From assembly GCF_988242995.1 (NCBI RefSeq), contig NZ_OZ547043.1: a stretch of DNA of 64,000 bases; one strand, given 5' to 3'. A program made the position numbers and the translations under genes. The notes beneath the pieces are model-generated. The model was not told the DNA's origin and did not search any database. It saw only the letters and a program-made list of their open reading frames with translations. Shown piece by piece: positions 6,549-13,831 of the stretch (positions are counted from its first letter, which is position 1; each line of letters opens with the position of its first letter).

Positions 6549-7676
6549 ATGACCATTAACTTCCGCCGTAACGCATTGCAGTTGAGCGTGGCTGCGCTGT
6601 TCTCTTCTGCTTTTATGGCTAACGCCGCCGATATTCCGCAAGTCAAAGTCACCGTGACGGATAAGCAGTGCGAACCGATGACCATTACGGTTAACGCCGG
6701 GAAAACACAGTTCATTATTCAGAACCACAGCCAGAAGGCGCTGGAGTGGGAGATCCTCAAAGGCGTGATGGTGGTGGAAGAGCGAGAAAATATCGCCCCT
6801 GGCTTTAGCCAGAAAATGACGGCGAATTTACAGCCTGGCGAATACGATATGACCTGCGGTCTGCTGACTAACCCGAAAGGGAAGTTGATCGTTAAAGGTG
6901 AAGCAACGGCGGATGCGGCGCAAAGCGATGCGCTGTTAAGTCTTGGTGGTGCAATTACTGCATATAAAGCGTATGTCATGGCGGAAACCACGCAGCTGGT
7001 GACCGACACCAAAGCCTTTACCGACGCTATTAAAGCAGGCGATATCGAAAAAGCAAAAGCACTGTATGCGCCGACGCGCCAGCACTATGAGCGCATTGAA
7101 CCGATTGCTGAACTGTTCTCCGATCTGGATGGTAGCATTGACGCCCGTGAAGATGATTACGAGCAAAAAGCCGCCGATCCAAAATTCACCGGTTTCCACC
7201 GTCTGGAAAAAGCATTGTTTGGCGATAACACCACCAAAGGGATGGATAAGTATGCCGACCAGCTTTATACCGATGTGGTCGATTTGCAAAAACGCATCAG
7301 TGAACTGGCTTTCCCTCCGTCAAAAGTGGTCGGCGGTGCAGCCGGACTGATTGAGGAAGTGGCAGCCAGCAAAATCAGCGGTGAAGAAGATCGCTACAGC
7401 CACACCGATCTGTGGGATTTCCAGGCTAACGTTGAAGGCTCGCAGAAAATTGTCGATCTGCTGCGTCCACAACTGCAAAAGGCCAACCCGGAACTGCTGG
7501 CAAAAGTCGATGCCAATTTCAAAAAGGTCGATACCATTCTGGCGAAATACCGTACTAAAGACGGTTTTGAAACCTACGACAAATTGACCGATGCTGACCG
7601 TAATGCGCTGAAAGGGCCGATTACTGCGCTGGCGGAAGATCTGGCGCAACTTCGCGGTGTGCTGGGGCTGGATTAA
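6549..7676 (+). CDS. efeO: EfeO periplasmic iron-binding component
   Basis: 375 aa with N-terminal signal peptide; matches recalled EfeO. Confidence 0.94.
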
Positions 7677-7681
7677 GCGTT

Positions 7682-8953
7682 ATGCAGTATGAAGATGAAA
7701 ACGGCGTGAATGAACCGTCACGCCGACGTTTACTGAAAGGGATTGGTGCGCTGGCGCTGGCGGGAAGTTGTCCGGTCGCTCATGCACAAAAAACGCAAAG
7801 TGCACCGGGTACGCTTTCACCGGATGCACGCAATGAGAAACAGCTGTTTTATGGTGAGCATCAGGCAGGGATCCTGACGCCACAACAGGCCGCAATGATG
7901 CTGGTGGCGTTTGATGTGCTTGCCAGCGATAAAGCCGATCTTGAGCGGTTGTTTCGCTTGTTGACTCAGCGTTTTGCTTTTCTGACTCAGGGCGGAGCAG
8001 CACCAGAAACGCCAAATCCGCGCCTGCCACCACTCGATTCCGGCATTCTTGGCGGCTACATTGCGCCCGATAATCTCACCATCACATTATCGGTGGGCCA
8101 CTCATTGTTTGATGAGCGCTTTGGCCTTGCGTCGCAGATGCCGAAAAAGTTGCAGAAGATGACGCGTTTCCCCAACGACTCGCTTGATGCAGCATTATGT
8201 CATGGTGATGTGTTGCTACAAATTTGCGCCAACACCCAGGATACGGTGATCCATGCGCTGCGCGATATCATCAAACACACGCCGGATTTGCTCAGTGTGC
8301 GCTGGAAGCGGGAAGGGTTTATTTCCGATCACGCGGCGCGTAGTAAAGGCAAAGAGACGCCGATTAATTTGCTGGGTTTCAAAGACGGCACTGCCAATCC
8401 CGATAGCCAGAATGATAAGTTGATGCAAAAAGTGGTGTGGGTGACGGCAGATCAGCAGGAGCCTGCGTGGACAATCGGCGGCAGCTACCAGGCGGTGCGG
8501 TTGATTCAGTTTCGGGTGGAATTTTGGGACAGAACGCCGCTGAAAGAACAGCAGACGATATTTGGGCGTGATAAGCAAACCGGCGCGCCGCTGGGAATGC
8601 AGCATGAGCATGATGTTCCCGATTACGCCAGCGATCCGGAAGGGAAGGTGATTGCGCTGGACAGCCATATCCGGCTGGCGAATCCCCGCACGCCAGAGAG
8701 TGAGTCAAGTCTGATGCTGCGTCGTGGCTACAGTTATTCGTTGGGCGTCACCAACTCCGGACAACTGGATATGGGGCTACTGTTTGTCTGCTATCAACAC
8801 GATCTGGAAAAAGGCTTCCTGACAGTACAAAAAAGGCTCAATGGCGAAGCGCTGGAGGAATACGTTAAACCTATCGGCGGCGGTTATTTTTTTTCGCTGC
8901 CGGGAGTGAAGGACGCGAACGATTATCTCGGAAGCGCGTTATTACAGGTTTGA
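7682..8953 (+). CDS. efeB: EfeB Tat-exported dye-decolorising (DyP-type) haem peroxidase
   Basis: 423 aa; twin-arginine motif SRRRLLKG near N-terminus. Confidence 0.94.
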
Positions 8954-8964
8954 ACGACGCAAAT

Positions 8965-9058
8965 ATGCCCGATGCGCAGGTTTATCGGGCATGAGTTTTG
9001 TGCACAAATTATTAATCACTTGTAGGTCGGGTAAGGCGTTCACGCCGCATCCGGCAAG
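8965..9058. repeat. Palindromic unit plus REP element in efeB-phoH spacer
   Basis: ATGCCCGAT..ATCGGGCAT palindrome and GTAGGTCGGGTAAGGCGTTCACGCCGCATCCGGCA typical REP sequence. Confidence 0.6.
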
Positions 9059-9108
9059 TTTTTACCAGTACTGCGAATCCTGCTGAAAGCACACAGCTTT
9101 TTTCATCA

Positions 9109-9126
9109 CTGTCATCACTCTGTCAT
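9109..9126 (+). promoter_or_regulatory. Pho box (PhoB binding site) of phoH promoter
   Basis: CTGTCAT CACT CTGTCAT: two perfect 7-bp direct repeats with 4-bp spacer, about 150 bp upstream of phoH ATG. Confidence 0.8.
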
Positions 9127-9275
9127 CTTTCCAGCAGAAACTAATGTCACTGAAATGGGTGTTTATCGTTAAACACAAGTAAATATAATGTTGCAATGAA
9201 TGCGAGTTCTGTTGTAATTATTAAGTAGCAGCGGAAGTTCCCGGCAGTGATAGTCAGTCACTATGGAGATCGCGG

Positions 9276-10340
9276 ATGGTAACGTCCTGTACTGGACATG
9301 TTTTAGATAATCAGCGCGCCACCACTCGCGGAGATTTCTCCTCCGGTAGCAACTTCGTCACTTTGTATTTTCAACCTCATCCTTTCTTTTCATGTGTTAC
9401 CGACGCCGTAAACGGTGCGCGTAGCCGTTTTTCGGCATTTTATCCAAAAGCAAACTATGGCTTACAAGGAAGCCAACCCTCTGATGTTCGTGCGCATAAT
9501 CGCGCTGCCAACGGCGCGTGTGATGAATACAAACAACTCAAGGTGCTCTCCATGGGAAGACAAAAAGCAGTGATCAAAGCTCGTCGCGAGGCAAAACGTG
9601 TGCTGAGACGGGATTCGCGCAGCCATAAGCAGCGTGAAGAAGAATCGGTCACCTCGCTTGTGCAGATGAGCGGCGTAGAAGCCATTGGTATGGCCCGCGA
9701 CAGTCGCGATACCTCGCCCATCCTCGCGCGAAATGAAGCGCAATTGCACTATCTGAAGGCTATTGAGAGTAAGCAGCTGATATTCGCCACGGGCGAAGCC
9801 GGGTGCGGAAAAACCTGGATCAGCGCAGCAAAAGCGGCAGAGGCCCTGATACATAAGGATGTCGACAGGATTATCGTCACCCGTCCAGTTCTGCAAGCCG
9901 ATGAAGATCTTGGCTTCTTACCTGGAGATATCGCAGAAAAGTTTGCTCCCTATTTTCGTCCGGTCTACGACGTGCTGGTCCGGCGCTTAGGGGCTTCCTT
10001 TATGCAGTACTGCCTGCGACCGGAAATAGGGAAGGTGGAAATTGCGCCGTTCGCCTATATGCGTGGACGTACCTTTGAAAATGCAGTCGTCATTCTTGAC
10101 GAGGCGCAGAATGTGACTGCCGCGCAAATGAAAATGTTTTTAACCCGCCTCGGGGAGAACGTGACGGTTATCGTCAACGGTGATATCACGCAATGCGATT
10201 TGCCTCGCGGCGTGCGCTCCGGATTAAGTGACGCGCTGGAACGTTTCGAAGAAGATGAAATGGTCGGGATCGTCCGATTCGGTAAAGAGGATTGCGTACG
10301 TTCGGCACTTTGCCAACGTACGCTACATGCATACAGTTAA
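9276..10340 (+). CDS. phoH: PhoH, phosphate-starvation-inducible ATP-binding protein
   Basis: 354 aa, Walker A GEAGCGKT; matches recalled PhoH. Confidence 0.95.
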   Translation: MVTSCTGHVLDNQRATTRGDFSSGSNFVTLYFQPHPFFSCVTDAVNGARSRFSAFYPKANYGLQGSQPSDVRAHNRAANGACDEYKQLKVLSMGRQKAVIKARREAKRVLRRDSRSHKQREEESVTSLVQMSGVEAIGMARDSRDTSPILARNEAQLHYLKAIESKQLIFATGEAGCGKTWISAAKAAEALIHKDVDRIIVTRPVLQADEDLGFLPGDIAEKFAPYFRPVYDVLVRRLGASFMQYCLRPEIGKVEIAPFAYMRGRTFENAVVILDEAQNVTAAQMKMFLTRLGENVTVIVNGDITQCDLPRGVRSGLSDALERFEEDEMVGIVRFGKEDCVRSALCQRTLHAYS

Positions 10341-10358
10341 GTGTATTATCGGTACAGA

Positions 10359-10388
10359 GCCCGGGCGAACCGGGCTTTGTTTTATTTC
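10359..10388 (+). terminator. Rho-independent terminator after phoH
   Basis: GCCCGG GCGAA CCGGGC hairpin followed by TTTGTTTTATTT. Confidence 0.7.
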
Positions 10389-10902
10389 ATTAACAGCAAA
10401 GACTTTCACTTCAGGTTAACGTTCAGGGGGGCGACTTTGAGCGTGTTGATAAGCTGAAATGAATTCTGGTTTAGATACTCTTACCAGGCATTTTTCGTCA
10501 TAGCACCCGACCAGTGTAATGCCGCCAGCGCGGAGAGTTTTTTGCCTATCTTTTTCCAGCCATTCAACCTGTACAGGAGGTCTGGTGCCAATTTTGCGTA
10601 TGAGGTTTAATCAGCAATGGGCCATAATTTGACTGACTGATTAACACCGAATATATTCTCCTGATTTTATTTTTTAGGGATAATATTAAAAATATAAGGT
10701 TAATCTTAATTAATTCTTCAGCTAATATTGTGTGTTGTTATTTTTTGTGGACGGCAAGCCGCAATGGCAAAATAGGTATGGTTGTAATAATCAAAACATG
10801 ATACTAACTATATATAGATCGTTGAATTGTTGGCATGTAACTCGCTACAGCGAGTAGCGTTAGTAATGAAATATAATCAACATGGATAGGTGAAGATTAA
10901 TT

Positions 10903-11589
10903 ATGAGCTTTATGGTTTTTGTAACTTGTTTGACAATTGCATTTGTCGCCGGTTTTGCTGTTGCCAGAAAATTGACACTCCGAAAAGTTGCCTCATCGGT
11001 AATCATCACTAGATCGCAACCAGTCCCTTCCTCTGCAACTTCCCCTGCGGCTAAGGCGTCGACAAGGAGCTATACACCGCAGAAAACCTATCGTGACTCT
11101 CGTTGGCAAGAACGAGATGAGTTGTTCCAGGGAATGGTTGCCGAAGGTATTTTATTGGAAGGAAAAGAGTGGTTAATTACGCGTTGTGAAAAAATTTATT
11201 TTGATAATCTGGAGAAATGGTTTGGACATTATTGTCATATCCATTGCCAGGTCTCTCTGGGGCGCTTGATCAACTTTCCAGAACAACCCGAGTTTAGCGA
11301 AGAAGAAAGAAAGCGTTTCTTTGCAATTTATAATGGAATGGCAATGGATTATGTTCTGGTTTCAAAGAAGAACAATAAAATAGTCTGTGTTATTGAGCTG
11401 GATGATCCGAGTCATGAAAGGGCAGATCGCATTATTCGTGACCGTTGGTTGAATACGATTATGACTATTGCACGGGTGCCTTTTGTACGAGCTTCTGTCA
11501 CTAAATTGGATGAAATCCCTCCGGTCTGGGATACCCGTGACAAAATTCGCCCATTAGCCGCGGCGACAAAGGGTGAACCGTTGCATTAA
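10903..11589 (+). CDS. Hypothetical membrane-anchored protein with C-terminal PD-(D/E)xK-like nuclease-type domain (resembles DUF2726 / NERD-like fold); orphan accessory gene
   Basis: 228 aa ORF; AGGTGA RBS about 10 nt before ATG; N-terminal hydrophobic helix (aa 4-24), S/T/P-rich linker, C-terminal block MDYVLV..VIELDDPSHERADRIIRDRWL..VPFVR; visibly AT-rich; not recognised as a K-12 gene. Confidence 0.65.
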   Translation: MSFMVFVTCLTIAFVAGFAVARKLTLRKVASSVIITRSQPVPSSATSPAAKASTRSYTPQKTYRDSRWQERDELFQGMVAEGILLEGKEWLITRCEKIYFDNLEKWFGHYCHIHCQVSLGRLINFPEQPEFSEEERKRFFAIYNGMAMDYVLVSKKNNKIVCVIELDDPSHERADRIIRDRWLNTIMTIARVPFVRASVTKLDEIPPVWDTRDKIRPLAAATKGEPLH

Positions 11590-11596
11590 CTAAGTA

Positions 11597-11674
11597 CCCC
11601 GGTCGGGGCTCCTCATCCCCCCGGTGTGTGCAATATACGAAAAAAAAGCCCGTACTTTCGTACGAGCTCTTCTT
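11597..11674. repeat. Copy 1 of a 78-bp module that equals the serX downstream terminator region
   Basis: Near-identical (3 differences) to 12489-12565, which sits directly 3' of intact serX; contains CCCCGGTCGGGG and CGTAC..GTACG hairpins and an A8/T8 run. Confidence 0.7.
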
Positions 11675-12385
11675 GTGCACAGAAAACCCCCAGCTAGGCT
11701 GGGGGTTCCGGAAAGCTTTCAGCTTTGAGCCAGTTATTAAAACCCCTTTTGATTTGTTAAAACACCTTGCGGTCTGGCAACTGCAAGTGTCAAACAAGAA
11801 ATCAAAAGGGGGTCCCAATGGGGGACGAAAAGAGCTTAGCGCACACCCGCTGGAACTGTAAATATCACATAGTTTTTGCGCCGAAATACCGAAGACTGGC
11901 GTTTTACGGAGAGAAGCGTAGGGCGATAGGCAGTATTTTGAGAAAGCTGTGTGAGTGGAAAAGCGTACGGATTCTGGAAGCAGAGTGCTGCGCAGATCAT
12001 ATCCATATGCTTGTGGAAATCCCACCCAAAATGAGCGTATCCGGCTTTATGGGATATCTGAAAGGGAAAAGCAGTCTGATGCTTTACGAGCAGTTTGGGG
12101 ATTTGAAATTCAAATACAGAAACAGGGAGTTCTGGTGCCGAGGGTACTATGTCGATACGGTGGGTAAGAACACGGCGAAGATACAGGACTACATAAAGCA
12201 CCAGCTTGAAGAGGATAAAATGGGAGAGCAGTTATCGATTCCCTATCCGGGCAGCCCGTTTACGGGCCGTAAGTAACGAAGTTGGATGCAAATGTCAGAT
12301 CGTGTGCGCCTGTTAGGGCGCGGCTGGTAACAGAGCCTTACAGGCGCATTTGAAAAACCTCCGGCTATGCCGGAGGATATTTATT
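11675..12385 (+). mobile_element. IS200-like insertion sequence (IS200/IS605 family), about 0.71 kb
   Basis: Single 152-aa HuH transposase; subterminal hairpins CCCCCAGC-TAG-GCTGGGGG (11687-11705) and CCTCCGGC-TAT-GCCGGAGG (12358-12376); no terminal inverted repeats; size as expected for IS200; exact ends approximate. Confidence 0.8.
11818..12276 (+). CDS. tnpA: IS200 transposase TnpA (Y1 HuH)
   Basis: 152 aa MGDEKSLAHTRWNCKYHIVFAPKYRR..HIHML..RGYYVDTVG; HuH motif and catalytic Tyr region; ORF track extends upstream to an in-frame start at 11767. Confidence 0.9.
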   Translation: MGDEKSLAHTRWNCKYHIVFAPKYRRLAFYGEKRRAIGSILRKLCEWKSVRILEAECCADHIHMLVEIPPKMSVSGFMGYLKGKSSLMLYEQFGDLKFKYRNREFWCRGYYVDTVGKNTAKIQDYIKHQLEEDKMGEQLSIPYPGSPFTGRK

Positions 12386-12391
12386 TAAATA

Positions 12392-12488
12392 TGGCGGTGA
12401 GGGGGGGATTGACTCGCTTCGCTCGCCCTGCGGGCAGCCCGCTCACTGCGTTCACGGTCTGTCCAACTGGCTGTCGCCAGTTGTCGAA
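12392..12488 (-). repeat. Degenerate copy of serX 3' end (19-bp exact direct repeat 12392-12410) plus 78 bp of unrelated sequence; att-like scar
   Basis: TGGCGGTGAGGGGGGGATT is identical to the 3' end of intact serX at 12572-12590; upstream part does not fold into a tRNA. Confidence 0.6.
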
Positions 12489-12565
12489 CCCCGGTCGGGG
12501 CTTCTCATCCCCCGGTGTGTGCAATATACGAAAAAAAAGCCCGTACCTTCGTACGAGCTCTTCTT
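12489..12565 (-). terminator. serX downstream hairpin/terminator region (copy 2 of the 78-bp module)
   Basis: On the serX sense strand the tRNA is followed by GCTCGTACGAAGGTACGGGC hairpin and T8. Confidence 0.65.
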
Positions 12566-12571
12566 TAAAGA

Positions 12572-12659
12572 TGGCGGTGAGGGGGGGATTCGAACCCCCG
12601 ATACGTTGCCGTATACACACTTTCCAGGCGTGCTCCTTCAGCCACTCGGACACCTCACC
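12572..12659 (-). tRNA. serX: tRNA-Ser (serX type)
   Basis: 88 nt, sense strand GGTGAGGTGTCCGAGTGGCTGAAGGAGCACGCCTGGAAAGTGTGTATACGGCAACGTATCGGGGGTTCGAATCCCCCCCTCACCGCCA; long variable arm typical of tRNA-Ser, encoded CCA. Confidence 0.9.
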
Positions 12660-12693
12660 AAATTGTTGTTCCTGTCTTGCTGGAACGGGCGCT

Positions 12694-12722
12694 AATTTAG
12701 GGAAATCATGACCTGAGGTCAA
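12694..12722 (-). promoter_or_regulatory. Putative sigma70 promoter of serX
   Basis: On minus strand TTGACC (12717-12722), 17-bp spacer, TAAATT (12694-12699), GC-rich discriminator, about 30 nt before the tRNA 5' end. Confidence 0.5.
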
Positions 12723-12853
12723 CAAACTTTTTTAAAAAATCGCGTGTTTATTCAAACTTCAATCAATATGCAGTTTTAATAAGCGAAATCTGCTTTTTTT
12801 GCCACCGACCACGGATTTGTTATGCTGGTGGCTTTTGTAGATCATAACGATAA

Positions 12854-13831
<978 letters not shown>

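Follow-up and report, generated by a model that had tools for sequence, protein, structure and literature searches.

What does an exactly repeated heptamer lying between efeB and phoH do for the expression of phoH? In the 64,000-nucleotide stretch of DNA analysed here (the window, to which all positions refer), the sequence CTGTCATCACTCTGTCAT, which reads as CTGTCAT CACT CTGTCAT, occupies 9109–9126 on the plus strand, the same strand as phoH, with half-sites at 9109–9115 and 9120–9126 joined by a CACT linker. The two 7-bp copies are exact, with 14 of 14 repeat bases matching and an 11-bp period, and when both strands of the 64 kb are scanned for the pattern CTGTCATNNNNCTGTCAT there is one exact match, no other site at two or fewer mismatches, and a next best site with three; 100 dinucleotide-preserving shuffles of the window contain no exact match at all. 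Lone CTGTCAT heptamers are not enriched in the window (seven seen against 7.0 expected) and, as they occur at chance frequency, the exceptional part is their tandem, 11-bp-phased arrangement. The motif, its uniqueness within the window, its geometry and its conservation can all be read off the DNA directly. We regard it as almost certain that 9109–9126 is the known PhoB box of P1, the upstream promoter of phoH on the E. coli chromosome, where it would serve as the binding site for a PhoB dimer.

The surroundings are those of the efeB-phoH locus, as annotated for K-12 and for an O169:H41 strain. Upstream of the box lies efeUOB, with ORFs for EfeO at 6549–7676 and for EfeB, with its Dyp-peroxidase domains, at 7682–8953, and downstream of it is the ORF of a PhoH-family ATPase, matched by Pfam PF02562 over residues 149–353 (E = 1e-76). 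The distance from the box is 150 bp to the ATG of the long phoH ORF at 9276 and 426 bp to the ATG of the short ORF at 9552, and phoBR is absent from the 64-kb window. Directly after the efeB stop (8953), a terminator-like hairpin on the plus strand at 8964–8993, consisting of an 11-pair stem and then a T-rich tail, likely insulates phoH from efeUOB read-through. The efeB-phoH spacer also holds a REP-type palindromic element (9025–9065, plus strand), seen as a partial match to naRNA4 (REP) below the gathering score; this part of the spacer is strain-variable in E. coli, and K-12 differs from the window there.

Of 5426 complete E. coli genomes, 5417 match the 607 bp that run from the efeB stop into phoH, with 90–98% identity and always at phoH, and 5381 hold the region. 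The 39-mer around the box is identical in 3043 of the 5426, and in the variants that were sampled the changes are confined to the two bases immediately upstream of the box. The 18-mer itself is the same in K-12 (NC_000913.3, 1084825–1084842), in O169:H41, in O157:H7 and in three other E. coli, the five non-K-12 strains having been sampled across the identity range. When P1 of K-12 is set beside that of the window, the 18-bp box and the efeB and phoH flanks are the same, P2 and the two start codons lie equally far from the box, and the interval from the box to the phoH ORF is free of indels; the differences downstream of the box include CAGCAG here for CAGTAG, several substitutions in the ArcA operator, and a P2 -10 element of TAATTA here versus TACTTA in K-12. 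On the other side of phoH, pgaABCD, which lies 3' of the gene in K-12, is missing, and 10341–13500 holds in order a DUF2726 protein (10903–11589), an IS200C-type transposase (11767–12276), a tRNA-Ser(GGA) on the minus strand (12572–12659) and ghrA, an arrangement that as a whole, including the IS200 copy, is common to just two of the 5426 complete E. coli genomes.

The action of PhoB on this box has been described in K-12. Upstream of phoH, ChIP-seq places a PhoB peak at 1084845, for which the motif is TGTCATCACTCTGTCATC, and under low phosphate phoH RNA is 2.8-fold lower in a phoB deletion than in the wild type (13,375 versus 37,076), with sigma-70 occupancy at phoH more than 2-fold lower in the same mutant (Fitzgerald et al., 2023; PMC10294691). 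In that study phoH is one of seven classical Pho-regulon operons that combine upstream PhoB binding with significant positive regulation (PMC10294691). A first, sequence-only reading of this DNA had proposed a PhoB site upstream of phoH, and the proposal is borne out, as the site is identical to the K-12 ChIP-seq target with its phoB-dependent phoH RNA (PMC10294691). The phoH Pho box is thus already known, as that of a classical member of the Pho regulon, its first description dating from 1993 and its renewed confirmation by ChIP-seq from 2023. That first description, by Kim et al. in J Bacteriol, reportedly contained both a footprint of PhoB and a pair of start sites, P1 and P2. PhoB occupancy and phoB dependence were shown in K-12, where the box has the identical sequence. 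K-12 is also the source of three results taken up below, on the ArcA footprint, on where P2 starts and on internal initiation of translation, and by analogy the present strain would be expected to behave as K-12 does.

The box had been called perfect, and this holds for its two heptamers only; it does not hold for the linker. The classical Pho box linker consensus of Makino and Wanner is A(A/T)A(T/A), an A/T-rich linker being typical and not obligatory. The CACT of phoH is unlike this classical linker, and the K-12 site with the identical CACT is bound in vivo (PMC10294691).

Is the box a property of E. coli or of the family? We compared 80 phoH loci, one per Enterobacteriaceae species, with column counts taken over 78 sequences. 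For most genera, the position of the best Pho-box-like match is near-constant, at -427 to -448 relative to the conserved ATG. The cores of both half-sites are kept, the first at T9110 (99%), G9111 (96%), A9114 (97%) and T9115 (95%), and the second (9120–9126) at T, G, T, A and T (96–100%; n = 78 for both), and the linker in the other Enterobacteriaceae reads A-(A/T)-T-T (n = 78). Two perfect CTGTCAT repeats are confined to Escherichia; other genera carry pairs such as CTGTTAT/CTGTAAT or CTGAAAT/CTGTCAT, within degenerate repeats exemplified by CTGTTATATTTCTGTAAT and CTGAAATAATTCTGTCAT and, in Salmonella, by GTGTAATCTTTCTGTAAG, at the same distance from the conserved ATG. This degeneracy outside Escherichia agrees with the statement of Fitzgerald et al. 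that the phoH Pho site is conserved 'to a lesser degree' (PMC10294691). The representatives of Salmonella arizonae and diarizonae have boxes with four mismatches, and a passage in a review citing Valdespino-Diaz (2022) describes Salmonella phoH as HilD-regulated and PhoBR-independent.

Two Escherichia loci depart from the pair. In E. albertii NBRC 107761 (locus L008) and in Escherichia sp. MOD1-EC7003 (L004) the promoter-proximal CTGTCAT alone is kept, about 440 bp before the ATG of the short ORF; in the E. albertii strain this looks like an 11-bp deletion of one repeat relative to the variant of E. coli SCPM-O-B-8794, and in MOD1-EC7003 unrelated sequence stands in place of the distal half-site. 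In both, phoH is predicted to be under weaker PhoB control. One further locus (L012; CACSKA010000011.1) bears the title 'Chryseobacterium sp. 18061' and has an enterobacterial efeB-phoH locus with a PhoH that is 95% identical to the query; the assembly is probably mislabelled or contaminated.

If PhoB binds at 9109–9126, where would polymerase make its own contacts? Ten bp after the end of the box at 9126 there is a hexamer, GAAACT (9137–9142, plus strand), that is conserved as GAnACT (A9138 99%, A9140 86%, C9141 86%, T9142 87%; n = 78), and the same 10-bp gap is found in K-12 phoA (TTGTCAC-GGCCGAGACT-TATAGT) and in K-12 pstS (CTGTCAC-CTGTTTGTCC-TATTTT). On the strength of this shared gap and of the conservation of the hexamer we assign GAAACT as the -10 element of P1, which would put the start near 9149. 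GAAACT matches TATAAT at just three of six positions, and the -35 position of P1 is taken up by ATCACT (9114–9119), which matches TTGACA at three of six, as expected of an activator-dependent promoter. The earlier suggestion that the box replaces a -35 element stands up well against this geometry, in which there is no good TTGACA, and the box would then stand in for the -35 element of a P1 whose -10 hexamer and start site are predicted. A scan of 8900–9620 found no consensus sigma-70 promoter; this is the expected outcome where P1 depends on an activator and P2 is non-canonical, and we have not counted it against either.

There is a second candidate for the P1 -10 element. TAATGT, at 9142–9147, has the T-A...T expected of a -10 hexamer, and GAAACT resembles TATAAT poorly; if TAATGT were used, the PhoB site would still be real, with the start shifted to near 9154. 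It would, however, lie 15 bp after the box, a departure from the 10-bp gap of phoA and pstS that places PhoB further upstream than in those two promoters, and positions 9143–9147 are poorly conserved across genera (36–62% majority) against 86–99% at 9138 and 9140–9142. We consider TAATGT an unlikely choice and retain GAAACT. In the 11-bp phase of the box, a third repeat position falls at 9131–9137 (plus strand); it is degenerate here (CCAGCAG), it reads CTGTAAG, ATGTCAG or CTGTATG in other genera, and its conservation is weaker than that of the two half-sites (n = 78).

In its basic plan the phoH box is built like those of pstS and phoA, with two 7-bp repeats, an 11-bp period and 10 bp to the -10 element. 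The latter promoters, however, have A/T-rich linkers (AAAA, ATAA, AAAG) and better -10 elements (TATTTT, TATAGT), and pstS has two tandem boxes, whereas phoH combines perfect heptamers with a CACT linker, a weak -10 element and a second, constitutive promoter. For phoA, the reads are 310,112 with phoB and 1,548 without it, as compared with the 2.8-fold effect at phoH (PMC10294691), and the smaller published effect of PhoB on phoH fits the weak -10 element, the CACT linker and the constitutive second promoter. The effect on K-12 phoH is modest because P2 contributes basal expression.

Could the repeat instead be an inert, conserved PhoB site, one that is bound and has no regulatory effect in the present strain? 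Such sites exist in number, as Fitzgerald et al. found many ChIP-seq PhoB sites without an effect on transcription (PMC10294691), and the fold change due to PhoB at phoH is small. But the inert sites are mostly intragenic and phoH belongs to the group of seven classical regulated operons (PMC10294691); its box is intergenic, it is correctly spaced from a conserved -10 element, and its position is kept across the family. We therefore find it very improbable that the repeat is inert, and continue to read it as the PhoB site of a regulated P1.

The second promoter of phoH, which the sequence-only reading had also mentioned, is supported as well. P2 is described by Park et al. (2013; PMC3798270), citing Kim et al. 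(1993), and the sole phoH start in a genome-wide K-12 map, at 1084166 in older coordinates (221 reads, 49-nt 5' UTR; Kim D. et al., 2012, supplement), has flanks that match the window, so that its equivalent is the A at 9227 (plus strand), with ATG 9276 following 49 nt and ATG 9552 325 nt downstream of it. By working back from this mapped start site, we placed the hexamers of the P2 core promoter (9191–9220, plus strand), which comprises a -35 element TTGCAA at 9191–9196, an 18-bp spacer and a -10 element TAATTA at 9215–9220; the TAnTTA positions are 96–100% conserved and TTGC 99–100% (n = 78).

What the earlier reading omitted is the ArcA operator that adjoins the Pho box. At 9144–9197 on the plus strand, 11-bp-phased direct repeats (ATGTCA, GTTAA at 9168, GTAAA at 9179 and TGTTGCA at 9189), the cores of which are 87–100% conserved (n = 78), form a putative ArcA-P operator that extends over the P2 -35 element and over the start predicted for P1. 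In K-12 the predicted ArcA-P site is ATGTCACTG...TTGTTGCAAT, equivalent to window 9144–9197, and a 60-bp DNase I footprint spans -80 to -21, numbered from the P2 start of Kim et al. in 1993 (PMC3798270). The operator here is homologous to this footprinted site, with substitutions in DR1 (TCGTTAAACAC here versus TAGTTAAATAT), and is of the multi-repeat kind reported for phoH, paaA and trxC, with three consecutive repeats and one 22 bp away, overlapping P2 (Park et al., 2013). Expression of phoH rises 25.3-fold in an arcA deletion, and the ArcA repeats are stated to 'overlap a second promoter (P2)' (PMC3798270); the published effect of ArcA on phoH (25-fold) is much larger than that of PhoB (2.8-fold). 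It is through homology to the K-12 start and to the footprinted site that tandem P1 and P2 promoters with an ArcA operator are recognised in the window, and their function here is to be taken as a candidate one.

The proximity of this operator raises the question of whether the direct repeat is mainly read by another regulator of the OmpR/PhoB family, for instance as an extension of the ArcA operator, with PhoB in a secondary role. ArcA likewise reads 11-bp direct repeats (TGTTA) and binds directly beside the box, and the half-sites CTGTTAT and CTGTAAT of other genera are closer to an ArcA-like TGTTA. In Escherichia, however, the repeats have the PhoB core, TGTCA; ATGTCAC (9144), at which both the ArcA-P footprint and the predicted ArcA-P site begin in the published data, lies downstream of the box; and both PhoB ChIP-seq and phoB-dependent RNA are documented for the exact box sequence (PMC10294691). 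It is hardly credible that PhoB is a secondary reader here, and we keep to PhoB as the regulator for which the box is made.

Another promoter-like sequence lies inside the ArcA operator, at 9162–9189, where TTTATC-16-TATAAT has a perfect -10 hexamer. Shimada (2014) lists TTTATA-16-TATATT as a constitutive sigma-70 promoter of the K-12 efeB-phoH spacer, from a SELEX peak. TTTATC-16-TATAAT was considered as P2 and rejected, as the start maps to 9227 and an ArcA footprint of -80 to -21 fits a start at about 9221–9227. A minor third phoH start may lie near 9196.

The way in which these elements might act together can be set out as follows. Under low phosphate, a dimer of phosphorylated PhoB would bind head to tail on the two CTGTCAT repeats and, from the -35 position at 9109–9126, would recruit sigma-70 RNA polymerase to the weak P1, with GAAACT at 9137–9142 as the -10 element and transcription beginning near 9149. 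P2, about 78 bp downstream of the P1 start, would give PhoB-independent basal expression of phoH, and under anaerobic conditions phosphorylated ArcA on 9144–9197 would shut both promoters. The P1 and P2 mRNAs would each carry both in-frame starts, at 9276 for a protein of 354 aa and at 9552 for one of 262 aa.

This last point bears on the source of the shorter product that had been attributed to the second promoter. The attribution is correct for the mRNA, the P2 transcript being about 78 nt shorter than the predicted P1 transcript, and incorrect for the protein: the P2 start at 9227 is upstream of both ATG 9276 and ATG 9552, and P2 therefore cannot by itself give a shorter PhoH. The long ORF (9276–10340, plus strand, 354 aa) is the form annotated in K-12 (b1020), and the short ORF (9552–10340, plus strand, 262 aa), with a good Shine-Dalgarno sequence, AAGGTG at 9540–9545, is the RefSeq/PGAP form in other E. 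coli. What accounts for the 262-aa PhoH is a conserved in-frame translation start inside the long ORF, at 9552. Ribo-RET has identified a conserved internal translation start in phoH, with enhanced conservation at synonymous sites (bioRxiv 10.1101/520783), and the short PhoH is 93–100% identical across Enterobacteriaceae.

From 9552 on, variation among species is biased toward the third codon position (0.003, 0.003, 0.081), and over 9276–9551 it is equal at the three positions (0.244, 0.233, 0.241). Equal variation of this kind would be consistent with an N-terminal extension (codons 1–92) that is purely non-coding, a reading we have not adopted: the extension is open, at 91–94 codons, in 52 of the 78 sequences, and its indels mostly come in multiples of three. 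Closed extensions occur in Citrobacter, Salmonella, E. albertii, E. whittamii and E. coli E69, and in most of these sequences the closure appears to come from a 1-nt gap aligned at or next to the T-run at 9428–9432, as with the T5-to-T4 frameshift of E. coli E69. The 354-aa form of PhoH looks dispensable.

The region between the P2 start and the internal translation start, 9227–9551 on the plus strand (about 325 nt), is both the phoH leader and an optional N-terminal extension, and there are helices at about 9326–9347, 9402–9439, 9459–9474 and 9495–9525. With 25 as well as with 80 sequences, RNAalifold finds compensatory changes in the first, second and last of these, and the hairpin at 9459–9474 is invariant. 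Among the 80 sequences 97.4% of cells are paired, a percentage that is inflated by the derivation of the structure from the alignment on which it is scored. Less affected are the counts of changes on both sides, which are found in 15 of 38 pairs and amount to 160 cells, as against at most 57 when the 3' partners are slid by 1–3 columns; the covariation score is 0.206, as against at most 0.081 in the slid controls. The minimum free energy of the whole leader is not unusual (z = -0.77), so the case for structure rests on covariation and not on stability. An Rfam scan of 9000–9700 returned no family match, just sub-threshold REP/naRNA4 and chance matches.

Also within the leader are two invariant segments, UGGAGAUCGC (9264–9273) and CCCG (9240–9243), whose complement is found at 9543–9556, across the Shine-Dalgarno sequence and AUG that serve the internal start; as both sides of this pairing are invariant, it falls outside the reach of covariation. 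It is tempting to speculate that the leader might act in cis as a regulatory RNA, either to set how much 354-aa PhoH is made relative to the 262-aa form or to gate synthesis of the core protein, and that its structure might be opened by translation from 9276; we put this idea forward tentatively and think it somewhat doubtful.

For the biology of phoH, the box itself matters little beyond its correct annotation, and it is an ordinary site. Around it, the anatomy of the locus is now fixed in the window, from the box, the P1 -10 element and the ArcA operator to the P2 start and the two start codons, and the idea that P2 makes a shorter PhoH protein has been corrected. Across the family, the perfect CTGTCAT pair proves to be specific to Escherichia, with other genera keeping degenerate repeats at the equivalent position. 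The leader that is fed by both P1 and P2, possibly not fully described so far, may deserve a look.
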